Below, piece after piece: positions 1-29,170 of a stretch of 29,170 nt of DNA. Positions within the stretch are counted from its first letter, which is position 1. Every line of letters starts with the position of its first letter. Source of the stretch: a virus. A model generated the notes under the pieces. It was not told the DNA's origin and searched no databases. It was given only the letters and a program-made list of their open reading frames with translations. The stretch covers positions 1-29,170 of IMG/VR virus record IMGVR_UViG_3300027805_000061; one strand, 5' to 3'. A program made the translations under genes and the position numbers.

Positions 1-127
1 AGATGTTCGAGAATTACGATCAGCATCTTATTCATAGGTTTAAACTAGCAGGTACTGAATTCGGATTTATTCCTCATTTAGAATCTATGTCATGGGGAGA
101 ATATATGGATGCTGAAAAGTATATGTC
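1..127. repeat. Left copy of the 127-bp end overlap (identical to 29044-29170). It marks circular closure of a 29,043-bp genome.
   Basis: Direct comparison: agatgttcgagaatt...gaaaagtatatgtc at 1-127 recurs exactly at 29044-29170. Confidence 0.95.
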
Positions 128-497
128 GGACTGGAGTACTATGCATAATGCGATGGCAGTTCTATTTAGACCTATAGTAAAAGTTAAAGGAGATAAGTAC
201 TCTATAGAGGATTACGAATCTTCTATAAATTATGCTGAAGTAATGAAGGGAATGCCATTAAACGTAGCTATCTCTGCTAATGTTTTTTTTTGGACTTTAG
301 GAGCAGAATTACTAGGAGGTACGATGGACTTTTTACAGGAGCAGATGAAGGAGATGAATCAGGAGGAGTTAACGATTATAGCGAAAGAGCTCAATTTGGA
401 GAAAGGTGGGGATGGTATAGCTCAATATATGCAGTCGCAAAAGGAGATGCTACAAAGTTCGATGAAGTTACTAAACTTTCCATTCATCAGGCTTTAA
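3..497 (+). CDS. Tail-assembly-chaperone-like virion assembly protein, zero-frame product. The gene starts at ATG 28842 across the closure and totals 232 aa.
   Basis: The ORF is in frame with 28842-29043 across the junction. Codon usage is genome-typical up to the T9 run and atypical (G-ending codons) after it. The function call rests only on the recoding architecture. Confidence 0.5.
   Translation: MFENYDQHLIHRFKLAGTEFGFIPHLESMSWGEYMDAEKYMSDWSTMHNAMAVLFRPIVKVKGDKYSIEDYESSINYAEVMKGMPLNVAISANVFFWTLGAELLGGTMDFLQEQMKEMNQEELTIIAKELNLEKGGDGIAQYMQSQKEMLQSSMKLLNFPFIRL
283..291 (+). promoter_or_regulatory. T9 run containing the -1 slippery heptamer T TTT TTT (284-290) in correct zero-frame phase. 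This is a recoding or transcriptional-slippage site.
   Basis: Zero-frame codons read gtt ttt ttt tgg. The -1 frame is closed by TAA at 278-280 and opens exactly here. Confidence 0.55.
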
Positions 498-568
498 CCT
501 TCCTTACATTTGAGAAAGAAAAGAATACTATAGAAGTTAACGAAATAAGAAGAAGAACTAAGATATGA
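290..568 (+). CDS. -1 frame C-terminal extension of the chaperone-like gene. The fusion product would be about 256 aa.
   Basis: 93 open codons in the -1 frame with G-rich first codon positions and genome-typical gga/gat/gaa/gct codons. Its stop overlaps the next start (ATGA at 565-568). Confidence 0.6.
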   Translation: MDFRSRITRRYDGLFTGADEGDESGGVNDYSERAQFGERWGWYSSIYAVAKGDATKFDEVTKLSIHQALTFLTFEKEKNTIEVNEIRRRTKI

Positions 569-1017
569 AAGCATATACCTATTTAATTGATACACTAAGA
601 GAAGCTTTTGAGGATATTCCTTTAGTAACCTCAGTAACTACAGGATCTTTAGATGATATAGATAATTATAAGCAGACTCTATTTCCTTTAGTGCATATAA
701 TTGTCAATAATATGTCGCCTGAAGCTAATATACTACGTTTTAACGTTACTATTATGGCAATGGATATTGTAGATATTTCTCAGAATGAAACTACTGATAG
801 ATTTAGAGGAAATGATAATGAGCAGGAAGTACTAAATACTACTTCTATTATCTTAATTAGAGTAGCTGAGTTACTTCGAAGAGGAGAGCTTAATGATAGG
901 CTAGAGATTTTAGGAAATGCTTCATGCGAACCTTTTACGGAACGTTTTGAGAACCTTCTAGCAGGATGGGCTATGACTTTAGATATTATCCTTCCGAATG
1001 AAATGAGCATCTGCTAA
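565..1017 (+). CDS. Virion structural protein, possibly a neck or tail-completion protein
   Basis: 150-aa ORF translationally coupled on both sides within the morphogenesis operon. No diagnostic motif was recognised. Confidence 0.6.
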   Translation: MKAYTYLIDTLREAFEDIPLVTSVTTGSLDDIDNYKQTLFPLVHIIVNNMSPEANILRFNVTIMAMDIVDISQNETTDRFRGNDNEQEVLNTTSIILIRVAELLRRGELNDRLEILGNASCEPFTERFENLLAGWAMTLDIILPNEMSIC

Positions 1018-1532
1018 TGAATCAGGAAGAAACTAAGAAAGCTTTAGAAGAGCTTAAAAAGTACGTTATTCAGCAAAGTAGGAGTAATCTTACTAGACTA
1101 GGAAAGAACGCAGGAAAGAAGCTCTATAACTCTATAGAAGGAGATGTAGAAGCTTATCCGAATTCTATTCAGTTAATCTTTAGTATGGAGGGATACGGAT
1201 TCTTTCAGGATAAAGGAGTAAGTGGAGTTAATAAGAAGTATAATACTGAATTCAGCTATAAATCTAAGATGCCACCTCCGAAAGTATTCGCTAAATGGAT
1301 TAGGCAGAAAGGGCTAGCTCCTAGAGATAAGAACGGAAAGTTTATAAGCACTAAATCTCTTCAGTTTTTACTAGCTAGACATATATTCAGAAATGGGATT
1401 AAGCCTTCTCTATTCTTTACTAAACCTTTCGAGAATGCTATTAAGCGAATGCCTGAAGAAATTACTAGAGCGTACGGATTAGATGCAGGAAAGTTAATAG
1501 ATAGTATAATGAAACAAAACTTTAACAGATGA
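1017..1532 (+). CDS. Virion structural protein, tentatively an HK97 gp10-like head-tail component
   Basis: 171-aa ORF with TAATG coupling. The resemblance to gp10-type tail-completion proteins is loose and by eye only. Confidence 0.55.
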   Translation: MNQEETKKALEELKKYVIQQSRSNLTRLGKNAGKKLYNSIEGDVEAYPNSIQLIFSMEGYGFFQDKGVSGVNKKYNTEFSYKSKMPPPKVFAKWIRQKGLAPRDKNGKFISTKSLQFLLARHIFRNGIKPSLFFTKPFENAIKRMPEEITRAYGLDAGKLIDSIMKQNFNR

Positions 1533-2602
1533 AAATATTCGCTAGATCTCCTTTTATTATCGAAGTGAGTGAAACTGGACAGGCAGGAAGTAAGATAGAA
1601 ATCTTCTTATGGAACTCAGGCTTTCCTCCTACTATTCCTACTCATAAACTATCTAAGCCTATTCCTAGTTTGACTAAGATAGAAACTACTTATAATATCT
1701 CTCCTTATGTAAGAGAGTTTATAAATCATAACACATGGCAAACTCCATTTGATAGCATAGAAGATACTCCGAATTCTCAGTACTGCAATGTAAGGATAAA
1801 GAGATACAAACTATCAGGAGGAGTTTATACTTTATTAGATACTATTTCTTATTTAGGATTCGATGGATACGGATACTATGAAGAAGGATATAATCCTCAG
1901 ATAGGTAACTACTTCTTAACTCCTAGAAATACTTACTACTATCATTACGATGAAAATGCTACTATAGGAGCTACTCCTTTAGATTCTGCAGGACATCTAA
2001 CATTTGATAGAACTGCTGAAGTAGTAACTGATATTAGATATACTAATTTAAGAACTGGAGCTACTGAAGTACTAGGAATATCAGGAACTGCTATTAAAGA
2101 CGTTCCTAGAGTTTATTCTGATTGGTATGCAGATGGAAATATATTAGAACTTCTAGATTCAGATCTTAGTGATTTAGCTAGATATACTTTCAGACCTATT
2201 CACGAATGTAGAAATCAAGTTTACGTTTGCGATTTCGTAAATAAGTACGGAGCATGGCAAAGGGAGTTTTTCTTTGGAGCATCTAATGAGCAGATAGATT
2301 CTACTGCTACTACTTACAATTTACTTCAAACTGATTTAGTGGATTATTCTACTCTAGAAGGGCAAAGAAAAGAATTCAATGCTAATGGAATAAAAAGTAT
2401 CAGAGTGAATACAGGTATCAGAGGAGAAAGTATGAATACTCCTCTTCAGGAACTTATGCTATCAGAAAGGATTCTATTAAATGGACTTCCTGTAAAACTA
2501 CGATCTAAATCTCTAGCTAAATTAAAAGAGATAAATACTAAGATTATAAATTATGCTTTAGAATTCGAATTCGCTAATGACATTATTAACTCAGTAGTGT
2601 AA
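1529..2602 (+). CDS. Tail structural protein (357 aa)
   Basis: Long ORF with ATGA coupling, sitting next to a large tail-tip-like gene. Confidence 0.65.
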   Translation: MKIFARSPFIIEVSETGQAGSKIEIFLWNSGFPPTIPTHKLSKPIPSLTKIETTYNISPYVREFINHNTWQTPFDSIEDTPNSQYCNVRIKRYKLSGGVYTLLDTISYLGFDGYGYYEEGYNPQIGNYFLTPRNTYYYHYDENATIGATPLDSAGHLTFDRTAEVVTDIRYTNLRTGATEVLGISGTAIKDVPRVYSDWYADGNILELLDSDLSDLARYTFRPIHECRNQVYVCDFVNKYGAWQREFFFGASNEQIDSTATTYNLLQTDLVDYSTLEGQRKEFNANGIKSIRVNTGIRGESMNTPLQELMLSERILLNGLPVKLRSKSLAKLKEINTKIINYALEFEFANDIINSVV

Positions 2603-4947
2603 TGAAAAGGAACGTTCAAATATATGTAGAAGGAGAAAGGATAGAACTCTTTAACGATGAGAAAATAAATGTAAATAGCTCAGTTCAGAATATAGCTGAT
2701 ATCTCTAAGGTATTTACGGATTTCTCTCAGAGCTTTACTATTCCTGCTTCGGAGGTAAATAATCGAATCTTTCAACACTTCTATAATTCAGATTACGATA
2801 GTACTATAAATCATAATATGCGTAGAGATGCGTATATAGAGATAGACTTAACTCCGTTTAGAAGAGGAAAGATACAACTAGAGAAAGCGAATCTAAAGAA
2901 TGGAGCAGTAGATAATTATTCAGTTACTTTCTATGGAGATGTACTAGCTCTTAAGGATAAATTCGGAGAAGATAAATTAGCTCAGCTAGATTATTCAGCA
3001 GATTCATTTGATTATACTGGAGCTGAAGTACAAGCTAGAGTAGAAGCTAGTGCTACTGATTACGATGTATGCTATCCTTTAATAAGTTCTCAGAGAGTTT
3101 GGCAGTATGATAATCCTACTACTCCTGATGATAATATAGATACTTCTGCAGGAGCTATAGTATTCGATGAGTTATTTCCTGCTTATAGAGTAAGGAATAT
3201 TTTTGAAGTAATTCAGAGTACTTATGGAGTTTCCTTTACAGGAACTTATTTAGGAGATCCTAGATTTTCTAGTGCTTATCTATGGCTTAAGAAATCAGAA
3301 GCTCCTTCTTTTATTACTGAAAATGTTACTATTGATTTTGATTCAGTTTCTTATTTTATTACGGAATACTTTTTACACGTTAACGTATATACTGATACTA
3401 ATTTAATTCAATATAGCTCTTATTCATCTCCTTATGATGCGATTACTCATTATATAGATATAACGTTTTCAGGAGTATCAGATACTTCTATAATTTATTA
3501 TGTAGATGTATATATAAACAATACTCTAGTAAATACTATTCAGGGAGTAGGAAATAATACCTATAATCTAATAACTGATAATAATGATCCTTCTTTATCT
3601 AATGAATGCTATTTCGTATTTAGAGCTGAAAATACTATAACATTTGATTCTATAATAAATAGTTATTTTGTAGGAGTAAGTGCAGGTTCTCCTATTACTA
3701 TAAATGATTACTCTATAACGAACTTTACTCAAACTGCATCAGGAAATGTAAACCTAGCAGATTTAATGCCTGATATGAAGGTAGCTGATTATTTTGCAGG
3801 AGTACTAAAGGAATTTAATCTTACTTGTTATGGAATCTCAGAGAACGTATATCAGCTAGAACCTTTAGAAGAATGGTATAATAAAGGGCAAATAAGAGAT
3901 ATAACTCCTTATGTAATAGTAGAGAATATAGATGTAGAACGTATCAAACTATATAGAACTATTCGATTTAAGTATCAGGATTCTCTTTCGTTTATGAACG
4001 TTCAGTTTAATCAGTTCTTTAATAGGCAGTATGGAAATTTAGATTATTCCTTTCCTTATGATGGAGAAGAGTACTCTATAGAATCTCCTTTCGAGAATTT
4101 AATGTTTAACCGATTCACGAATGAAGATATTCAAGTAGCTTATGCTCTAGGAACTGCTCCTGAGTTTAAGCCTTATGTAACTAAGCCTGTACTCTTATAT
4201 AAATTCGGAGGAATCAGTACAAACGTATGGTACTTTGATAATGGTACTACGATAGATATGCTGAATTCTTATACTTGCTTCGGGCAGGATTTAAGAGTAT
4301 CAGGAATAGATTATTCTTTGAACTGGGGAGCAGAAACTTCTACTTTGTGGAATGTACCTATTAACAACTCACTTTTTGAAACGTACTACTTTAATTATAT
4401 AGTTAACTTATTCAATAAGAAGAATAGACTTACTTACATTAAAGCGAATCTTCCTATAACTATTCTTACTAGCTTAAAGCTAAATGATAGGCTAGTAATT
4501 AGAGATAAGAGGTATATCATAAACGAAATGAAATCAGATTTAACTTCAGGAGAAGTAGAATTTACTCTTATAAATGATTTCAGACCTTTAGCACCTATTA
4601 GAGAAGTATCAGGAGAGATAGGATTCGGAGGATCTTCTCTAGTTAACGTAGCAGTACCTGTACCGAATGGAGTATATAAAGCTACTATAGATATTACAGG
4701 AACTGGAATTATTTCTATTAGTGAAACTGAACTCTTTGAAGATACTAGATTAGATATCGTTATTCCTGAAAATACTAATTTGATCTATACTCTAATTACT
4801 GAAGAAGGAGATTATTTAATAGGAGAAAGAGGAGAACAACTAGTAAATGAAGAAGGAAGAGAACTAGTATATACTATTCCTATTACTTATGAATATTTCG
4901 ATGGAACTATAGAAACTACTTATTTACAAATAATTCAACAAGGATGA
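2602..4947 (+). CDS. Large tail tip / baseplate structural protein (781 aa)
   Basis: Largest ORF in the genome. It is Asn/Tyr/Thr-rich and beta-type in composition, as is typical of tail-tip proteins. TAATG coupling. Confidence 0.65.
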   Translation: MKRNVQIYVEGERIELFNDEKINVNSSVQNIADISKVFTDFSQSFTIPASEVNNRIFQHFYNSDYDSTINHNMRRDAYIEIDLTPFRRGKIQLEKANLKNGAVDNYSVTFYGDVLALKDKFGEDKLAQLDYSADSFDYTGAEVQARVEASATDYDVCYPLISSQRVWQYDNPTTPDDNIDTSAGAIVFDELFPAYRVRNIFEVIQSTYGVSFTGTYLGDPRFSSAYLWLKKSEAPSFITENVTIDFDSVSYFITEYFLHVNVYTDTNLIQYSSYSSPYDAITHYIDITFSGVSDTSIIYYVDVYINNTLVNTIQGVGNNTYNLITDNNDPSLSNECYFVFRAENTITFDSIINSYFVGVSAGSPITINDYSITNFTQTASGNVNLADLMPDMKVADYFAGVLKEFNLTCYGISENVYQLEPLEEWYNKGQIRDITPYVIVENIDVERIKLYRTIRFKYQDSLSFMNVQFNQFFNRQYGNLDYSFPYDGEEYSIESPFENLMFNRFTNEDIQVAYALGTAPEFKPYVTKPVLLYKFGGISTNVWYFDNGTTIDMLNSYTCFGQDLRVSGIDYSLNWGAETSTLWNVPINNSLFETYYFNYIVNLFNKKNRLTYIKANLPITILTSLKLNDRLVIRDKRYIINEMKSDLTSGEVEFTLINDFRPLAPIREVSGEIGFGGSSLVNVAVPVPNGVYKATIDITGTGIISISETELFEDTRLDIVIPENTNLIYTLITEEGDYLIGERGEQLVNEEGRELVYTIPITYEYFDGTIETTYLQIIQQG

Positions 4948-5114
4948 TAACAAACGTATTAAATATGCTCAGGATGTCGAATCATTACGGAATCTCTGAG
5001 AATGTAGAAATAGCTAAAGGAAAGTATAAAATACCTACTTCAGTAAAGGAAGTATTTAATCAGGCTATTAGAGAACGCAAATTAAAAAAAGCTTTGAAGA
5101 ATGGAAGAGTATAA
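4944..5114 (+). CDS. Small hypothetical protein (56 aa), not in the supplied ORF track
   Basis: ATG 4944 overlaps the upstream stop (ATGA). Open to TAA at 5112-5114, overlapping the start of the next gene. Confidence 0.35.
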   Translation: MITNVLNMLRMSNHYGISENVEIAKGKYKIPTSVKEVFNQAIRERKLKKALKNGRV

Positions 5115-7023
5115 AGCAAAAATAACGATAGATACTGCATCAGCTACGAACTCTATAAATAACTTAGGAGATGCTATAGAAGGAGTATCAGATGAACTAG
5201 TTCCTCTTACTACTCAGATGGGAGAGATGGAGGATAAGCTTATGCTTATGGCTCATGCAGGAGATACTTCATCTGATGAATTTAAGAAGCTCTCTAAGGA
5301 AGTAGCAGGAATGCGTAAAACTATTAGAGAAACTGATGCAGGTATCGAAGCTCTCTCTATGACAACTTCAGGAAAGCTAGGAGGAGCTTTAGGAGGAGTT
5401 ACTGCAGGATTCGAACTAGTTCAGGGAGCTATGGGATCTATGGGAGCAGATTCAGCAGAAGTAGAACAGGCTCTTTTGAAAGTTCAGAGTGCTATGGCTA
5501 TGGCACAAGGAGTTCAGGGAATTAGAGAAGCAGTTCCTGCTTTTAAAGCTATGGGTTCTACTGCAGTTTCTGCTTTCAATGGAATTAAGGGAGCTATAGG
5601 AGCTACAGGAATAGGACTTTTAGTAATAGCTATCGGAGCTTTATATGCAAACTTCGATAAGCTAGGAGGACTAGTGGACTGGGCAAAGGAGAAGTTCAAT
5701 AATCTAGGAGATGGAGTAAAATCCGTAATTAACCTAGCTCTCCTTCCTTTGACTTTAACTATTAAGGCTATTATGAGTGCTATGGAAGCACTAGGATTAA
5801 TAGAGAGTGAACAGGATAAAACTAGGAGAACTCAGCATGAATCTCACATGAAGCAGGTAAATGCTAGAATGGAGAAAGAAGCTGAAGCTAGTAAGCAAAG
5901 AAGAGAAGCTTTCGAGAGTGAACAAAAGAACTATGATAGAGCTATAGCACTAGCAGAAGCAGAAGGTAAATCTACTCTAGGACTTCAAAAGCAAAAGATT
6001 CAAGGTTCTATAGCTTTTCAGAAAGAGCAAATAAAGGAGATGGAGCTAATGATTCAATCCATTAAGTTCGTACAGGAGCAGAGTGGATGGATGGCTAAAG
6101 GATTAAAAGATTTAGTAGATCAGGCAGAAACTGATTTACAAAGTATGAAAGATAGTGTAGCTGATGCTGAAACTGATTTAAAAGTTCTAGATATAAATGC
6201 TAGAAAAGAAAGAGAAGCTAGGGCACAAGAAGCTCACGAAGCAGAGCTAGAAAGAATACAAGCTGAGAAGGATGCAAAGAAAGAACTTTACCTATCAGAG
6301 CTAGACTTACAAAAAGAGATAGATGCTGAGAATGCTAAAATAGAAGAAGAGAGATTAGCTAGAATAGAAGAAGCGAATCAGAAAGCTCTAGATTTAGCTA
6401 CTGAACAAATTAATAACTTAGATAATCTTAATGCTGAAGAAATCGCAGTAGAAGGAGAGAAATTTACTAAGCTAGAAGAACTTCAAATAAAATGGGCGGA
6501 TGCTATGAAAACGCATCGCAAAGAAGTTAACGATGGCTTAGTAGACGGAGCTAAATCTATGTTTGATACTCTATCTAATTTATCAGAGTTATTTCAGGGT
6601 AAATCTAAGAAATCTCAGGAGAGAGCTTTTAAAGTTCAGAAAGCATCTCAAATAGGACAAGCTACTATAGATACTTTTAAGAGTGCTACAGGTGCTTTCT
6701 CTTCTATGGCTAGTATTCCAGTAGTTGGTCCTGTACTAGGTGCTTTAGCTTCTGCGGCCGCAGTAACTGCAGGATTATTAAATATCAAAAAGATAGCTAG
6801 TACAAAGTTCGAAGGAGGAACTATTCCTTCAGGAGGAGGAGAAGCAGTAAGTATGCCTTCTGCTAGTTCTATTATGTCGCCTAATTTTAACGTAGTAGGA
6901 AATAATCCTGTAAATCAATTAGCTCAGTTAGGATCGCAACCTGTACAAGCTTATGTAGTTAGTGGAGAAGTTACTACTGCTCAGAGCTTAGATAGGAATA
7001 GAATAAAAAATGCTACATTATAA
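5101..7023 (+). CDS. Tape-measure-like protein (640 aa)
   Basis: Gly/Ala-rich hydrophobic segments (GIGLLVIAIGAL, PVVGPVLGALASAAAVTAGLL) flank a long charged coiled-coil-like centre. Confidence 0.5.
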   Translation: MEEYKAKITIDTASATNSINNLGDAIEGVSDELVPLTTQMGEMEDKLMLMAHAGDTSSDEFKKLSKEVAGMRKTIRETDAGIEALSMTTSGKLGGALGGVTAGFELVQGAMGSMGADSAEVEQALLKVQSAMAMAQGVQGIREAVPAFKAMGSTAVSAFNGIKGAIGATGIGLLVIAIGALYANFDKLGGLVDWAKEKFNNLGDGVKSVINLALLPLTLTIKAIMSAMEALGLIESEQDKTRRTQHESHMKQVNARMEKEAEASKQRREAFESEQKNYDRAIALAEAEGKSTLGLQKQKIQGSIAFQKEQIKEMELMIQSIKFVQEQSGWMAKGLKDLVDQAETDLQSMKDSVADAETDLKVLDINARKEREARAQEAHEAELERIQAEKDAKKELYLSELDLQKEIDAENAKIEEERLARIEEANQKALDLATEQINNLDNLNAEEIAVEGEKFTKLEELQIKWADAMKTHRKEVNDGLVDGAKSMFDTLSNLSELFQGKSKKSQERAFKVQKASQIGQATIDTFKSATGAFSSMASIPVVGPVLGALASAAAVTAGLLNIKKIASTKFEGGTIPSGGGEAVSMPSASSIMSPNFNVVGNNPVNQLAQLGSQPVQAYVVSGEVTTAQSLDRNRIKNATL

Positions 7024-7043
7024 ATAACTAAAGTTTAGAAGGT

Positions 7044-7622
7044 ATGAATATTATAGAAATGGTTTTAGATGAATCTTCTGAGAAACAAGGGATTCATGCA
7101 GTATCAGTAGTAGAATCTCCTGCTATAGAGGAAAACTGGATAGCTCTAAATAAACAACTGATAGAACTTAAATCAGTAGATGAGGAGAAGAAAATTCTTA
7201 TGGGAGCAGGATTAGTACCTGATAAGCAGATTTATCGCAGAGATAAAGATAACGGAGAATTCTATATTTATTTCTCTAAAGAAACTATTCGTAAAGCTTC
7301 AGAGCTATTCTTAAAGAGATCGAATCAGAATAATGCTACTTATGAGCATCAGATGAAAATCGAAGGGATGTCAGTAGTAGAATCATGGATAATTGAAGAT
7401 AAAGAGAAAGATAAGAGTGCTATCTATGGCTTTGATTTACCTGTAGGAACTTGGATGATTTCTATGAAAGTAGATAATCCTGAAGTATGGGATAAAGTAA
7501 AAGCAGGAGAGATTAAAGGATTCTCTATAGAGGGATATTTTGAACCTGCAGAAGCTAAACTAAGTACTGATAAATCAGATGAAGAATTATTAAATGAAAT
7601 CTTAAATATTTTGAACGCATGA
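7044..7622 (+). CDS. XkdF-like putative prohead protease
   Basis: 192 aa. By-eye similarity to the PBSX XkdF domain (AVSVVESPAIE..., GFSIEGYF). Lies upstream of the scaffold and capsid genes. Confidence 0.55.
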   Translation: MNIIEMVLDESSEKQGIHAVSVVESPAIEENWIALNKQLIELKSVDEEKKILMGAGLVPDKQIYRRDKDNGEFYIYFSKETIRKASELFLKRSNQNNATYEHQMKIEGMSVVESWIIEDKEKDKSAIYGFDLPVGTWMISMKVDNPEVWDKVKAGEIKGFSIEGYFEPAEAKLSTDKSDEELLNEILNILNA

Positions 7623-8236
7623 TAGAAGAAAGAAGAACTATTAACTCGCAGTTTGATAATCAGCTAGAGAACTTTAATAGTGAAAATGATTACAATGCAG
7701 TTCCTGAGAAGGGAGCTATAGTATATTCAGAAGGAAGAGTTTATTATGGGGATGGAGTAGAATTTTTGCAATTAGCGAATAGTACTGAAATTCCTTCTAC
7801 TCAGAGTGGTTATGAGTTAATAGCTGATACTCAATATACTTCAGGCTCTCCTCTTACTTTTACTGCTTCTCCTTTCGTAATTACAAATAATGCAGGAGTA
7901 AATATTCAAAATAATTTAATTTGTTTTGATAATAACATAATCAAATTAGAAAGAACTAGAATCTTTACTATATCAGTTTCTTTTACTGCTAATGTATCAT
8001 CTAATAATCAACACGCAGATTTATACTTTGGAGATGCAGTTACAGGAGCTATAGTTAACGGATATTCTGATATTCTTCCATTTGTTAAAGGTAACGGAGT
8101 AAATCATAAGTTTACTAAAACTTTTCAAATAGTAGGAACTGAAGCTACTGCAACTAAAGGGATTCAAGTTTATTTATCTCCTACTCACGCAGGTAGTATA
8201 TTCGGAGCTGAATTCATAGTAAATAGATCTATCTAA
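7619..8236 (+). CDS. Hypothetical virion protein (205 aa)
   Basis: ORF with ATGA coupling to the protease gene. Confidence 0.6.
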   Translation: MIEERRTINSQFDNQLENFNSENDYNAVPEKGAIVYSEGRVYYGDGVEFLQLANSTEIPSTQSGYELIADTQYTSGSPLTFTASPFVITNNAGVNIQNNLICFDNNIIKLERTRIFTISVSFTANVSSNNQHADLYFGDAVTGAIVNGYSDILPFVKGNGVNHKFTKTFQIVGTEATATKGIQVYLSPTHAGSIFGAEFIVNRSI

Positions 8237-9434: not shown

Positions 9435-10385
9435 ATGGCTACAACATTAGACATTACAACAACTTATGCAGGGGAATCAGCAGGTAAATATATCGGTGCT
9501 GCTTTGCTTTCTGCGAACACTATTGAAAACGGAGGGGTATCAGTTATGCCTAACGTTAAATTTCGCTCTACTATTAAGCGATTCGATTCTGAGGATTTGG
9601 TAAAAGATGCTTCTTGCGATTTTACCGCTTCAGGAGCTATTACTTTGACTGAACGTGTAATCGAACCGAAAGAACTAGATGTTAACGTTCTTTTGTGTAA
9701 GAAAGATTTCCGTTCTGATTGGAACGCTATCGAAATGGGATATTCTGCTTACGATGTGCTTCCTAAATCTTTTCAGGATTTCTTGTTGGCACGTATGCTA
9801 GGGCAAGTAGCAGAAGCTACTGAGAAATCTCTTTGGCATGGTGCTAACGCAAATAACGGAGAATTTACAGGTATCTTTACTGAAGCTATGGCTCAGGCAG
9901 GTACAGGAATTCCTGCAGGTCAAGTAGTAGCAGGTTCTGCGATTACTGCTGCTAACGTTATCGCTGAAATGGGCAAAGTAGTAGATGCTATTCCTGCACG
10001 TTTGTACGGAAAAGATGGATTGAAGCTTTATGTATCTCAGAATGTAGCTCGTGCTTATGTTCGTGCTTTGGGTGGATTCGCTGCAGCAGGAGTAGGAGGA
10101 GCAGGTACTAACGCTCAAGGAACACAATGGTACGGAATTGGAGCAGGACTTTCTTTCGATGGAGTTCCTGTATTCGTAGCAAACGGATTGAACAACAATG
10201 AGATGTTAGCTTCAACTACTGAGAACTTGTACTTCGGTACTGGACTTCTTTCAGATGCTCAGGAAGTAAAAATTATTGACATGGCTATGATTGATGGCTC
10301 TCAAAATGTACGTTTTGTTATGCGATATACTGCAGGTACTCAAATCGGAATTTTGGAAGATTGCGTAGTATACTTTATCGACTAA
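9435..10385 (+). CDS. Major capsid protein (HK97-fold type)
   Basis: 316 aa, following the protease and scaffold genes. Codon usage (cgt/ggt/ttg) suggests high expression, and a strong intrinsic terminator follows. Confidence 0.65.
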   Translation: MATTLDITTTYAGESAGKYIGAALLSANTIENGGVSVMPNVKFRSTIKRFDSEDLVKDASCDFTASGAITLTERVIEPKELDVNVLLCKKDFRSDWNAIEMGYSAYDVLPKSFQDFLLARMLGQVAEATEKSLWHGANANNGEFTGIFTEAMAQAGTGIPAGQVVAGSAITAANVIAEMGKVVDAIPARLYGKDGLKLYVSQNVARAYVRALGGFAAAGVGGAGTNAQGTQWYGIGAGLSFDGVPVFVANGLNNNEMLASTTENLYFGTGLLSDAQEVKIIDMAMIDGSQNVRFVMRYTAGTQIGILEDCVVYFID

Positions 10386-11032: not shown

Positions 11033-11065
11033 AAGGAGTGGATTAAGTTCTGCTCCTTTTTTTTT
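11033..11065 (+). terminator. Intrinsic terminator
   Basis: AAGGAGTGG-attaagtt-CTGCTCCTT, followed by a T9 run. Confidence 0.8.
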
Positions 11066-11395: not shown

Positions 11396-13213
11396 ATGGA
11401 GCGAATAGATATAAATCAAATAATAGTAATAACGACTTCCTTACTTATGGAGAATAAAATAAATAATATACGTTCAGTAGAACTTAGTGCTTATGAAACT
11501 CCTGTAGTAATGGAGAGTAATCGTCAAGACTGGGTAACGTATGGAGAAAATGATTCTTATTATCAATATTTGATAGATAGATATACTTACTCTCCTTCGA
11601 ATAATGCGATAATTAACAATATCTCTAAGCTGATCTATGGAAGAGGATTAAGAGCTTTAGATGCTTCAGCAAAACCGAATGATTACGCAAATATGATAAC
11701 TCTCTTTCCTAAAGATGAAACGAAAAGAGAAATCGTAGATGCTAAAATGCTAGGGCAGTTCGCTATTCAAGTAATTTATTCAAAGGATCGTAAAACTATT
11801 GCTAAAACTTCTCATATACCTGTACATTTAATTAGACCTGAAAAGTGTAATAAAGAAGGAAAGATAGAAGCTTATTACTATTCTGATAATTGGCAGGATA
11901 CTAAGAAATTTCCTCCTAAGCGAATTCCTGCTTTCGGTACTTCTAGCGAACCTTTAGAGATTCTTATGGTACAACCTTACTCAGTAGGTATGAAGTACTT
12001 CTCTCTAGTAGATTATCAAGGAGCTTTACCTTATTGCGTACTAGAAGAAGAAATAGCAGATTATTTGATAAATGAAGTTCAAAATGGATTCTCAGGTACT
12101 AAAGTAATTAACTTTAATAATGGAATTCCTTCAGAGGAGCAGATGGATGAAACGGAAGCTAAAGTAACTTCTAAGCTTACAGGAAGCAAAGGAAAGAGAG
12201 TAATTATCTCTTTTAATCATAGCGATGCTCAAAAAACTACTATAGATGATATTCCTTTGAATGATGCTCCTCAGCACTACGAATATCTATCGGAGGAATG
12301 TATGCGTAAAATTATGCTAGGACATAATGTAACTTCTCCTCTATTATTTGGTATTAGTTCTAGTAACGGATTCTCTTCGAATGCAGATGAATTAAAGAAC
12401 TCATTTGTACTTTATTACAATATGGTAATTAGACCTTATCAGGATTTAATTATCGAAGCTTACGATAAGATTCTAGCATATAACGGAATCAAGTTAAAAC
12501 TCTATTTTGAAACTCTTAAACCTTTGGAATTTCAGGATGCATCAGGTAAAGTAGAAGAAACTCAGTTAAGCTCTCAGAATGATTTACAATTAATCCTAGA
12601 TGAAGTAGATAGAAATCAATTATCTGAAGAATGGGTACTAGTAGATGAAAGAGAAGTAGGAGAGAATGAAGAAGATTTAGATAATACTCTTTTAGATGCT
12701 GAATCCTCTATAGAACCTAAAACAGGCTTTTTAAGCAAGTTAATTAACCTAGTACAAACTGGAAATCCTTTACCTAAATTAAAGAGTTCTCAGGATAGAA
12801 AAGTAGGAGAATTAAAGTACTTTAAAGTTCGATATAAATACAACGGAAATAAAGATCCTGAAAGGCTATTTTGTAAAGCTATGATGGCAGTAAAAGGAAG
12901 GTTATTTCGAAAGGAAGATATAGATGCTATGAGTAAGAAAGCAGTTAATCCTGGTTTTGGAGAATTTGGAGCTAATACTTACGATATCTTTAAATTTAAA
13001 GGAGGACCTAGATGTCATCATAAATGGAGTAGAGTTACTTTTATGCTAGACTTAAATAAAATAGAAGAAGGATATCAGGAAATCGGAACTAGAAGAGCTG
13101 AGATAAAAGGCTATAAAGTAACGAATCCTTATGAAGTATCTTTTTATCCGAATCAGTTACCTTTAAAGGGGTTCTCTCCTAATAATCCTAATTTACCTTC
13201 AGACGTTCGATAA
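11396..13213 (+). CDS. Portal protein with a C-terminal extension (possibly a MuF/SPP1 gp7-like domain)
   Basis: 605 aa. The N-terminal region (DWVTYGENDSYYQYL...SPSNNAIINNISKLIYGRGL) is portal-like by eye. The C-terminus reads NPGFGEFGANTYDIFKFKGGPRCHHKW. The start could instead be ATG 11447. Confidence 0.55.
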   Translation: MERIDINQIIVITTSLLMENKINNIRSVELSAYETPVVMESNRQDWVTYGENDSYYQYLIDRYTYSPSNNAIINNISKLIYGRGLRALDASAKPNDYANMITLFPKDETKREIVDAKMLGQFAIQVIYSKDRKTIAKTSHIPVHLIRPEKCNKEGKIEAYYYSDNWQDTKKFPPKRIPAFGTSSEPLEILMVQPYSVGMKYFSLVDYQGALPYCVLEEEIADYLINEVQNGFSGTKVINFNNGIPSEEQMDETEAKVTSKLTGSKGKRVIISFNHSDAQKTTIDDIPLNDAPQHYEYLSEECMRKIMLGHNVTSPLLFGISSSNGFSSNADELKNSFVLYYNMVIRPYQDLIIEAYDKILAYNGIKLKLYFETLKPLEFQDASGKVEETQLSSQNDLQLILDEVDRNQLSEEWVLVDEREVGENEEDLDNTLLDAESSIEPKTGFLSKLINLVQTGNPLPKLKSSQDRKVGELKYFKVRYKYNGNKDPERLFCKAMMAVKGRLFRKEDIDAMSKKAVNPGFGEFGANTYDIFKFKGGPRCHHKWSRVTFMLDLNKIEEGYQEIGTRRAEIKGYKVTNPYEVSFYPNQLPLKGFSPNNPNLPSDVR

Positions 13214-17627: not shown

Positions 17628-17631
17628 ATAA

Positions 17632-17666
17632 AAAAAAGGGGTGCGACTTTTCAACGCATATTTTTT
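17632..17666 (+). terminator. Conserved hairpin / weak intrinsic terminator, copy 1
   Basis: The 27-mer aaaaaaggggtgcgacttttcaacgca is identical to 22167-22193. Stem GUGCG/CGCAU, then a U6 run. Confidence 0.5.
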
Positions 17667-21855: not shown

Positions 21856-21907
21856 AAAATAATTAAATTTTTTTTGTTGAAAATGTTTTTTGTATTCAGA
21901 AGAGTAT

Positions 21908-26051: not shown

Positions 26052-26062
26052 GAGTTTTTTTT
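26035..26062 (+). terminator. Strong intrinsic terminator ending the early/middle operon
   Basis: CTCCTAG-ttcacg-CTAGGAG, followed by a T8 run. Confidence 0.85.
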
Positions 26063-27297: not shown

Positions 27298-27606
27298 ATG
27301 CCGTTCAAAAAAGGAGAAACTCCAAAAGGAGCTAAAGTATTTAAGAAAGGAGAGAGTGGAAATCCTGCAGGAAAGCCGAAAGGAACTAAGCATGGAAGTA
27401 CACTACTTAAGGAGCTATTAGCACTAGATAACAATGAGCTAAAGATGCACCTAGCACAAATATCTAAAGCTATAGAGAAAGAAGATACCAATGCATATAA
27501 AGCAGTACTAGATAGAGCTTTCGGGACTGCAATTCAGCATATAGAACAAACTAATATAGATACGAATCTTCCTGAATGGTTAGATAAGGATGAAAGCGAA
27601 TCCTAA
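27298..27606 (+). CDS. Putative small terminase subunit (DUF5681-like N-terminus)
   Basis: GESGNPAGKPKGTK motif. Lies immediately upstream of TerL and overlaps it. Confidence 0.45.
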   Translation: MPFKKGETPKGAKVFKKGESGNPAGKPKGTKHGSTLLKELLALDNNELKMHLAQISKAIEKEDTNAYKAVLDRAFGTAIQHIEQTNIDTNLPEWLDKDESES

Positions 27607-28729
27607 CTTTACTTACTTAAAAAAGAATGTACCTAAGAATAGGATAACTCTCCTTCAGGGAGGAACTAGATCAGGTAAAACTTATAGCACTATCTATTAT
27701 TTAATTTGGTTTTGTAAAGAGTATAAGAATGCAGGACTAGAGATAGATATAGTGAGAGATACTTTTACTGCTCTTAAAGCTACTGCATGGAAAGATTTCT
27801 ATGATGTACTAGTAAAGCATAATCTATATAACTCAAACCTACATAACAAAACAGACCATCAGTTTAATCTATTCGGAAATCTTATATCTTACTACGGAGC
27901 AGATAACCCTGATAAAATACACGGAAGAAGTAGAGATATCTTATGGATTAATGAAGCGAATCAATTTCCTGAAGAAACTATAGACCAACTTTTTCCTAGA
28001 ACAAGATATAGGATAATAGCTGATTTTAATCCTGCTATGCCTTCTGAACATTGGTTAGATAAATACATTGAAAAGAATCCTCCTCTCATAACTACCTATA
28101 GAGATAATCCTCATCTTACTACTGCTCAGATAGAAGATATAGAGAGTAAGAAGAATAACTCTTACTGGTGGAAAGTTTACGGAACTGGAGAGAGAGCACA
28201 ACCTACAGGAGCTATCTTTAGCAACTTCGAAATAGGAGAGTATAGAGATGGAGAGATAACAGGATTCGGTCAAGACTTCGGATTTAGTAATGATCCTAGT
28301 ACGTTAATTAAGGTAGGTATAAATAGAAAGCGAAAAGAAATCTATCTAAAGGAGTGCTTCTTTGAAGTAGGACTAAATACAGGGCATCTATATAACTATA
28401 ATAGGCAGTATGCAGATAAAGAACTTATAGTAGCTGATTCTGCAGAACCTCGCTTAATATCAGAGCTTAGGCAAAGAGGTTTAAATATCGTAGAAGCAGA
28501 GAAGGGAGCAGGTAGTGTAACTGCAGGTATCTCTCTGATGAATGAGTATAAGATAGTAATAGATAAGGATTCTAAGAACCTGATTAAGGAGTTTCAGAAC
28601 TATTCATGGATAGAGAAAACTAATAAGAGTATTCCTGAGGATAAATGGAATCATGGAATAGATGCATCACGTTATTTTATAACGAAAGCTCTAGGAAATC
28701 CGAATAGAGGAACTTATCATATAAGATAA
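27590..28729 (+). CDS. terL: Terminase large subunit (PBSX-type, 379 aa)
   Basis: Walker A GGTRSGKT, Walker B-like DILWINEA, and a C-terminal nuclease region ADSAEPRLISELRQRG...GIDASRY. Confidence 0.8.
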   Translation: MKANPNFTYLKKNVPKNRITLLQGGTRSGKTYSTIYYLIWFCKEYKNAGLEIDIVRDTFTALKATAWKDFYDVLVKHNLYNSNLHNKTDHQFNLFGNLISYYGADNPDKIHGRSRDILWINEANQFPEETIDQLFPRTRYRIIADFNPAMPSEHWLDKYIEKNPPLITTYRDNPHLTTAQIEDIESKKNNSYWWKVYGTGERAQPTGAIFSNFEIGEYRDGEITGFGQDFGFSNDPSTLIKVGINRKRKEIYLKECFFEVGLNTGHLYNYNRQYADKELIVADSAEPRLISELRQRGLNIVEAEKGAGSVTAGISLMNEYKIVIDKDSKNLIKEFQNYSWIEKTNKSIPEDKWNHGIDASRYFITKALGNPNRGTYHIR

Positions 28730-28841: not shown

Positions 28842-29170
28842 ATGGAAGCGAAATTATATATCCCTACTGATTTATCAGAGATAACTCTAGAGCAGTATCA
28901 GTATCTAATGAAGATAAGTAATCCGAATGATGAAGAGGAGATATCAGCTAGAAAGATGATTTCCGTACTTTGTAAGATTCCTTTAACTGCAGTATTAAAG
29001 CTAGAAGTAAGTTCAGTATTAGATCTTACTAATAAGTTTACTAAGATGTTCGAGAATTACGATCAGCATCTTATTCATAGGTTTAAACTAGCAGGTACTG
29101 AATTCGGATTTATTCCTCATTTAGAATCTATGTCATGGGGAGAATATATGGATGCTGAAAAGTATATGTC
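28842..29170 (+). CDS. 5' part of the chaperone-like gene, which continues as 3-497 (zero frame) or 290-568 (-1 frame)
   Basis: ATG 28842 is the first ATG after the in-frame TAA at 28821-28823. The frame is continuous through the 127-bp overlap. Confidence 0.6.
   Translation, partial: MEAKLYIPTDLSEITLEQYQYLMKISNPNDEEEISARKMISVLCKIPLTAVLKLEVSSVLDLTNKFTKMFENYDQHLIHRFKLAGTEFGFIPHLESMSWGEYMDAEKYM
29044..29170. repeat. Right copy of the 127-bp end overlap
   Basis: Identical to 1-127. Confidence 0.95.

Follow-up and report, generated by a model that had tools for sequence, protein, structure and literature searches.

Probable programmed recoding at a conserved T run in a tail assembly chaperone-like phage gene

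In a phage genome, a run of nine T residues in the gene that follows the large terminase gene (TerL) marks the point at which a second reading frame opens, raising the question of whether this gene is decoded into two proteins, by which route the frame would change, and what role such a pair might play. The stretch of DNA analysed, here called the window, comprises positions 1 to 29,170 of the IMG/VR virus record IMGVR_UViG_3300027805_000061 (29,170 nt). Its ends are an exact 127-nt direct repeat (1-127 = 29044-29170), and the source is a circularly closed (or terminally redundant) phage genome with a unit length of 29,043 bp. As the contig is circular, the gene under study spans the join, which moves its start to an ATG at 28842, 112 nt past the TerL stop codon. 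In the list of open reading frames (ORFs) that accompanied a preliminary description of the window, the gene stood as 3..497, a version truncated by the contig end.

Two reading frames behind a T run

The 5' part of the gene lies at 28842..29170, with the ATG at 28842 in frame with window frame 3 and positions 29044-29170 duplicating 1-127. The gene continues at 1..290 with the rest of an N-terminal domain (residues 69-164, codons from position 3) that matches phrog_32199 (E 3.7e-16) and is modelled by AlphaFold2 (AF2) with a pLDDT of ~85-94; the recoded gene with its elements, the 150-aa gene downstream of it, TerL, and the tape-measure-like gene are all on the + strand. Positions 283-291 are a T9 homopolymer (U9 in the mRNA, on a dA9 template tract), which the zero frame (window frame 3) reads as aat gtt ttt ttt tgg. 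Within the run, T TTT TTT (284-290) is a slippery heptamer of the X XXY YYZ type in the phase of the zero frame (codons gtt 282-284, ttt 285-287, and ttt 288-290). The -1 frame is shut on the upstream side of the run by a TAA at 278-280 and thereafter stays open until the TGA at 566-568. Standard decoding would yield the 164-aa N-terminal domain followed by a 68-aa helical tail (232 aa in total, the slip site being at codon 164/232), while a frame change at the T9 run would join the same domain to a 92-aa helical domain with a WGWY motif (256 aa), the stop codon of which is coupled to the next gene.

The zero-frame ("G-type") tail occupies 291..497 (68 codons and the TAA at 495-497; WTLGAELLGG...GDGIAQYM...FIRL), is predicted to be helical, and contains the unique stretch ...WTLGAELLGGTMDFLQEQMK. 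The -1 frame ("T-type") tail occupies 290..568 (92 codons and the TGA; LDFRSR...RWGWYSSIY...TFEKEK) and contains the unique stretch ...YDGLFTGADEGDESGGVNDYSER. Only the -1 ORF is positioned for coupling, its stop codon overlapping in an ATGA (565-568) the start of a downstream gene of 150 aa (565..1017, phrog_30964), from which the zero-frame stop is separated by a gap of 67 nt.

This arrangement recurs throughout the family. Protein searches recovered 454 relatives from one database, while a second database yielded 3,743 clusters at 50% identity. Related loci were drawn from IMG/VR and from two isolate genomes, those of the Nonlabens phages P12024L and P12024S. In a tblastn-based census of 171 IMG/VR and isolate-phage loci, in which the N-terminal domain and the WGWY tail were located independently for each locus, the WGWY tail lies in the -1 frame behind a T run in 171/171 cases. 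The run is T9 in 147 loci (138 as NTT TTT TTT TNN and 9 as NNT TTT TTT TTG), T10 in 13 (9 in phase 1 and 4 in phase 0), and T11 in 11 (phase 1); a T7 or T8 run was found in none of the 171. These loci represent five phase and length arrangements, each of which holds an in-phase heptamer. Even the P12024L protein, which is only 27% identical to that of the window (27-30% for the two Nonlabens phages), has a T9 run in the same phase, and the junctions align, with FF followed by LDFRSRITRRY...RWGWY in the window vs. FF followed by LSFRERLRDLY...KWGWY in P12024L. At the nucleotide level, a blastn search of window positions 1-8000 against phage records gave no match, and the Nonlabens phages were found by protein-level search only.

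Both tails are conserved in their own right. The zero-frame tail (FFW.LG.ELL ... GDGI ... E.L) is conserved in homologues down to 43% identity, and the lengths of the zero-frame products are tightly clustered (216-235 aa). In the census loci of the window's clade and its relatives, this tail remains open for 54-90 codons past the slip site, whereas in the distant Nonlabens clade the slip site lies only 16-26 codons before the zero-frame stop, and the long dual-coding overlap of the window's clade appears to be a derived feature. The -1 tail is conserved from the first codon past the run (L.FR.R....Y..LF ... WGWYSSIY ... LTFEK.K). Its third-position variability is 0.405 in the overlap and 0.463 past the zero-frame stop, compared with 0.584 in the N-terminal domain, a drop within the overlap that is expected where the other frame is also constrained. 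The -1 ORF of the window has neither ATG nor GTG, its sole start-like codon being a TTG within the run; any ATG or GTG is likewise missing from the -1 tail in 44/159 distinct genes, and none precedes the WGW motif in 130/148. Thus, the -1 tail must be made as part of a fusion and not as an independent gene. AF2 models of a natural fused homologue and of a zero-frame-type protein reached pLDDT values of 84.6 and 84.1, respectively, and in both the junction falls within a helix (fusion, H153-173; zero-frame product, H154-184). The -1 tail shows confident helices in the fusion model, and distant proteins of 243-267 aa in BFVD match this model over its whole length (TMq 0.71-0.83).

The layout is difficult to attribute to chance or codon usage. 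At a genomic GC content of 33%, stop codons occur off frame at 0.115-0.12 per codon, giving a mean open stretch of 9-10 codons, and by our own calculation from this frequency the probability that two frames are open together over 68 codons is ~2e-4. The T9 at 283-291 is the only homopolymer of at least 8 bases within any ORF of at least 80 aa in the genome, and it is not a by-product of codon usage, as TTT accounts for only 63% of Phe codons (TTC 37%) and GTT for only 23% of Val codons. Both frames of the 207-nt overlap look coding: codon log-odds are +0.18 for the zero frame and +0.33 for the -1 frame, compared with -1.49 for the third frame, 0.56 +/- 0.18 for genuine genes, and -1.1 to -1.3 for non-coding off-frames. 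Four other homopolymers of at least 8 bases lie between ORFs of at least 80 aa (T9 at 11057-11065, A8 at 17630-17637, T8 at 21868-21875, and T8 at 26055-26062) and may be terminator or promoter tracts.

Comparison of the 171 loci, of both tails, and of the missing -1 start codons thus supports two products with a common N-terminus generated by a conserved -1 change, and the recoding is almost certainly programmed, with two predicted products that differ in their C-termini. The layout had been described in the same terms beforehand (a T9 at 283-291 that holds an in-phase heptamer and is itself long enough for polymerase slippage, a -1 frame shut at 278-280 that opens at the run and extends to 568, and coupling of this frame alone to the next gene), and each element was borne out. 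The proposal of alternative C-termini was strengthened by the conservation of both tails and the coding-like character of both frames. Two objections that the preliminary description had raised against itself fail: a T10 miscalled as T9 does not explain 171/171 loci that require a -1 shift at T9-T11, and homologues do not keep only the zero-frame C-terminus without the run, since the comparison found the T run and both C-termini conserved. Its account of codon usage needs revision, however. The zero-frame tail is indeed rich in G-ending codons (43% vs. 14% genome-wide), but it is not merely an open frame, given its positive log-odds and its conserved sequence and length.

A further conserved element, TTTAGG, lies four bases past the run (296..301) and reads F-R in the -1 frame and L-G in the zero frame, while its TAG (298-300) shuts the third frame. 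TTTARR is found at this offset in 136/171 loci, and in related loci the third frame is 0-7 codons long and usually ended by the TAG within TTTAGG. Transcripts or ribosomes reaching the third frame in the window would stop within 2-3 codons.

Polymerase or ribosome as the source of the frame change

Two routes could produce the longer protein. RNA polymerase would slip on the dA9:rU9 hybrid, and one inserted U would give a U10 mRNA that is read into the -1 frame; ribosomes slipping by -1 on U UUU UUU may account for part of the fusion, and both routes may act together. Both yield an identical junction (NVFF followed by LDFR), so that the protein sequence cannot separate them. We slightly favour transcriptional slippage as the probable main route, because the run is never shorter than nine. 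Throughout the five arrangements it comprises at least nine T's, although a heptamer would suffice for the ribosome. Lineages in phase 2, in which the 5' T is lost (preceding codon AGT or ACT), retain nine T's by means of a 3' TTG codon. The eighth T is invariant even though changing it would alter no amino acid in either frame (TTT to TTC, and TTA/TTG to CTA/CTG).

Runs of nine A or T are classical, efficient slippage sites of bacterial RNA polymerase, as in Thermus thermophilus dnaX and Shigella genes (PMC5009743), and homopolymers of at least 8 bases are a signature of programmed transcriptional realignment (PMC3711429). Like the sites in dnaX and in Shigella mxiE and spa (PMC5009743, PMC3711429), the site in the window is an uninterrupted run of at least nine T's in a coding region, kept while such runs are otherwise avoided in the ORFs of the genome, and one inserted U would give the -1 product with no need for RNA structure. 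Unlike at those sites, slippage here is predicted from sequence, and the run is at the same time a perfect ribosomal heptamer. Our literature search, within the library searched, found no published tail chaperone with transcriptional slippage and no report on this family. Conserved downstream RNA structure was not found, with RNAalifold predicting 0 pairs over 24 diverse sequences, while upstream Shine-Dalgarno (SD) elements were not formally scanned. The window's own fold (-12.6 kcal/mol, z = +1.65) likewise reveals no stimulatory structure. Stimulatory elements of either kind often accompany -1 frameshift sites, although they are not a requirement. Hosts within the Flavobacteriia mostly do without SD use.

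Several observations weigh against the polymerase as the main agent. The U UUU UUU heptamer is in phase in all arrangements, and each locus is thus compatible with a ribosomal -1 frameshift. The first and ninth T are partly set by amino acids, namely by Val, Leu, or Ile before the FF pair, by Trp or Tyr in the zero frame, and by Leu in the -1 frame, which makes the lower bound of nine suggestive and not proof. Lambda G/GT works without a stimulatory structure, and the missing structure is therefore not discriminating. The P2 gpE/E' pair slips translationally on a T-rich heptamer (T TTT TTG).

The strongest competing explanation is that the frame change is purely translational, a -1 frameshift at U UUU UUU (284-290) like those of lambda G/GT and P2 E/E'; we hold this to be a distinct possibility, although one that falls short of probable. 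It has the precedent of a family of proteins that use translational frameshifting (PMC5009743), and it would treat the two extra T's as by-products of the amino acid sequence, the first being the second base of a Val, Leu, or Ile codon and the ninth fixed by the neighbouring residues. This reading leaves unexplained why runs of T7 or T8 are missing from all 171 loci despite several independent codon arrangements, and why the eighth T never varies when TTC is a common Phe codon in the genome. A conserved stimulatory structure that might assist the ribosome was not found, and a U9 tract would be expected to make RNA polymerase slip in any case (PMC5009743).

Candidate function of the protein pair

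The family corresponds to phrog_32199, which has no known function, and its resemblance to tail assembly chaperones is remote. Sub-threshold matches to the Pfam family Phage_TAC_7 (PF10109; P2 gpE and Mu gp41) occur in 6/46 members (best E 0.026, against a cut-off of 25 bits), and to phrog_166 ("tail protein") in 8/20 members (best E 0.0031). The matches from these two independent libraries fall on the same residues (~10-75), and P2 gpE itself matches phrog_166 (E 4e-7) over the same profile positions as this family. A Foldseek search against BFVD returned mainly uncharacterised phage proteins, together with one entry named tail assembly chaperone (E 5.8e-3). Both products are acidic (isoelectric points of 4.9 and 5.3), and a conserved -1 shift behind a common N-terminus is a hallmark of these chaperones (PMC5009743). 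Taken with the position in the tail gene block, these features make a chaperone-like role of the pair quite likely, as judged from sequence and analogy. Most likely, by analogy, the pair acts like the tail assembly chaperones gpG/gpGT of lambda or gpE/E+E' of P2: the shared N-terminal domain (164 aa) would hold the tape measure protein (TMP), and the -1 domain would recruit the tail tube subunit. The account as a whole, that of a recoded chaperone-like pair produced mainly by RNA polymerase slippage, falls just on the probable side.

The similarities to the gpG/gpGT-type chaperones of lambda (Levin 1993; Xu, Hendrix & Duda 2004; reviewed in PMC5009743) include the common N-terminus, a conserved -1 change at an in-phase slippery heptamer without a stimulatory RNA structure, and acidic, helical proteins encoded in the tail gene block of a siphovirus-like genome. 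The lambda geometry, with the slip site near the end of the ORF, is shared by the distant Nonlabens clade (16-26 codons). In contrast to lambda, the gene studied here follows TerL and precedes the TMP gene by ~5 kb and five ORFs, and is not placed between the tube and TMP genes; its slip site is a strictly conserved T9-T11 homopolymer; its short product has a conserved tail of ~68 aa of its own, with ~200 nt of dual-coding sequence; and it has no significant sequence or fold match to gpG. With the P2 gpE/gpE+E' pair (PF10109; phrog_103 and phrog_166) the family shares a T-rich slip site and a -1 C-terminal extension, and residues ~10-75 match PF10109 and the gpE part of phrog_166 below threshold. 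P2 E, however, is a 91-aa protein encoded directly upstream of the tape measure gene T of a myovirus, whereas the protein described here carries an additional alpha/beta subdomain (~90 aa) and ends in one of two long tails. No match reaches the curated cut-offs, and hhalign against the single gpE sequence was negative. Neither adjacent to the TMP gene nor recoded near the end of the ORF, the pair departs from two positional criteria that are usual for such chaperones, and it is thus a known trick of tail assembly chaperones in an unusual form.

These departures also count against a chaperone role, as do several searches. Neither product has a Pfam family at default thresholds. In PDB, profile searches run with each of the two alignments yielded no meaningful match, and the fusion model drew only chance matches (E > 1) from Foldseek. 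When the family alignment was compared with the single P2 gpE sequence in hhalign, no alignment resulted. The gene follows TerL (27590..28729; Pfam Terminase_3 and Terminase_3C) directly, and five ORFs (150, 171, 357, 781, and 56 aa) over 4.5 kb separate it from the tape-measure-like gene (5101..7023; 640 aa, phrog_2854, E 4.3e-18). The slip site is not close to the end of the zero-frame ORF in the window (68 codons) or its clade, and only the Nonlabens clade comes near.

It is conceivable, though unlikely, that the recoding is real but serves a different protein of morphogenesis or structure that has two C-terminal forms and is no chaperone, a reading compatible with either slippage mechanism, so that its likelihood is not exclusive of theirs. 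The lack of any match at a curated threshold, a family without known function, the lack of a PDB match by profile or fold, the atypical place, and neighbouring genes without an assignment would all fit such a protein. Arguing for a chaperone instead are the sub-threshold matches of two libraries to one region, which indicate gpE-type chaperones, the Foldseek match to a protein named as such, the acidic and helical nature of the products, and the recoding hallmark (PMC5009743). Furthermore, no other candidate chaperone lies beside the TMP gene, where just the 56-aa ORF is found.

The label "chaperone-like" in the preliminary description thus gains remote matches to gpE-type families, but all of these are sub-threshold and the label otherwise rests on analogy. 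Its placement of the gene after TerL and apart from the tape-measure-like gene holds family-wide, with TerL upstream in 136/141 loci and the TMP-like gene downstream in 52/54 loci at a median distance of 4.95 kb, whereas the TMP-like gene is not four genes away, as five ORFs lie between. As a broader and more tentative proposal, which we regard as somewhat doubtful, the tail chaperones of a large flavobacterial siphophage family may be set by polymerase slippage on an obligatory T9-T11 run and not by the ribosome.

Variant loci and genome context

Single-ORF, pre-fused versions of the gene exist in other assemblies, with T10 in L084, L086, L087, L183, L184, and L185 and T7 in L083. They make up ~10% or less of the top cluster representatives; in all fused contigs that were traced, the G-type tail is still open and conserved in the other frame, and at least three look long-read or low-coverage by record name ("pilon", "contig_507", "ctg..4.13x"). 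We read these fused versions as homopolymer-length errors or rare alleles.

Such variants bear on three further explanations of the recoding site. DNA-level phase variation, in which replication slippage would give mixed T9/T10 genomes that each encode one isoform, would draw on the fast mutation of long homopolymers and on the appearance of T10, T7, and T9-for-T11 as consensus in some assemblies. Yet one infecting genome would then make one isoform, while both tails are conserved together in every genome. Since T9 (or T10/T11, with the same frame relation) is the consensus in 171/171 loci, and the variants are few and come in several cases from assemblies with error-prone-type names, this explanation is very improbable. 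Still less credible are two separate genes with an internally initiated -1 ORF, as implied by the annotation of gp40/gp41 in P12024L. In P12024L and P12024S, the GenBank gp41 (55 aa) begins at an internal ATG, but the start-codon counts given above speak against this for the family, amino acid conservation starts at the run, upstream of the annotated gp41 start, and full-length fused homologues exist and fold as one unit. That the T9 is an assembly or sequencing error and the true genome a T10 with a single 256-aa ORF, as the fused contigs might suggest, can be practically dismissed, because the IMG/VR and isolate loci are without exception in the -1 arrangement, the zero-frame tail is conserved in sequence and length, and the fused contigs retain this tail in the other frame, carry in at least three cases the record names mentioned, and include one (L085) with an extra upstream indel.

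In the isolate phages, the two frames are annotated as hypothetical proteins (gp40/gp41 and gp38/gp39) in P12024L (L001 7998-8692, NC_018272) and P12024S (L002 7998-8692, NC_018271). The start annotated for gp41 lies 85 nt downstream of the point, at the T9 run, where the Nonlabens -1 ORF opens, and the recoding is unannotated.

Among the variant contigs, L088 (a MEGAHIT contig in a cluster of 13 sequences) has T9 where eleven close or near-identical IMG/VR relatives (L089-L099) carry T11. The two-base difference brings the fusion in frame and is either a real length polymorphism or an assembly artefact. We considered L085 and L088 as a lineage with an in-frame fusion that reaches the G-type tail by a +1 shift, an arrangement that would have spoken for polymerase slippage in both directions, and rejected this, as L089-L099 show the normal -1 arrangement with T11 and L085 has an additional indel upstream of the run compared to L100-L106. 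Four hybrid homologues (P0054, P0071, P0122, and P0172) have a zero-type tail for 3 to ~60 residues followed by a WGWY-type tail, which implies extra indels in the dual-coding region that stem from faulty assembly or else are natural variants restoring the frame.

The recoding appears family-wide, and public records are without it: the entries for P12024L and P12024S show a pair of hypothetical proteins, and gene calls for thousands of metagenomic homologues give either a truncated ORF or, with a different run length, a fused one. A rule based on the T run would be a simple annotation correction for a family of several thousand clusters, and a T10 or T7 at this position in a metagenome assembly points to either a homopolymer error or genuine length polymorphism. 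The conserved ~68-aa domain of the short product overlaps the linker of the long one, and the gene lies far from the tape measure gene; the long overlap and this distance loosen the synteny rules that gene callers use for chaperone frameshifts. With a run fixed at nine or more T's, no RNA structure, and cultured phage-host pairs available, the family also offers a natural test of transcriptional vs. ribosomal slippage. If the polymerase-slippage reading is true, it would give the first case of a chaperone pair that arises through transcriptional recoding, in marine or aquatic flavobacterial siphophages with 3,743 clusters, in which a dual-coding stretch of ~200 nt would give the short isoform its own folded C-terminal domain and the gene would be uncoupled from the tape measure.

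Among the neighbouring genes, Pfam assigned no family at default thresholds, and the tail tube gene was not identified, as phmmer searches of the 357-, 781-, and 171-aa neighbours against PDB gave nothing useful; the 357-aa product is a candidate for the tube protein. No tRNA genes were found in the window. The 56-aa ORF (4944-5114; phrog_32183, no function assigned) overlaps the 3' end of the 781-aa gene and the 5' end of the tape-measure-like gene. No other ORF sits at the conventional chaperone position, and this one looks too small for the role. The order of the morphogenesis genes, from 27590 through the join to 13213, is unusual as well, with tail genes before head genes and the portal gene far from TerL: the tape-measure-like gene is followed by the head maturation protease (7044-7622), a capsid-like gene (9435-10385), and the portal gene (11396-13213).

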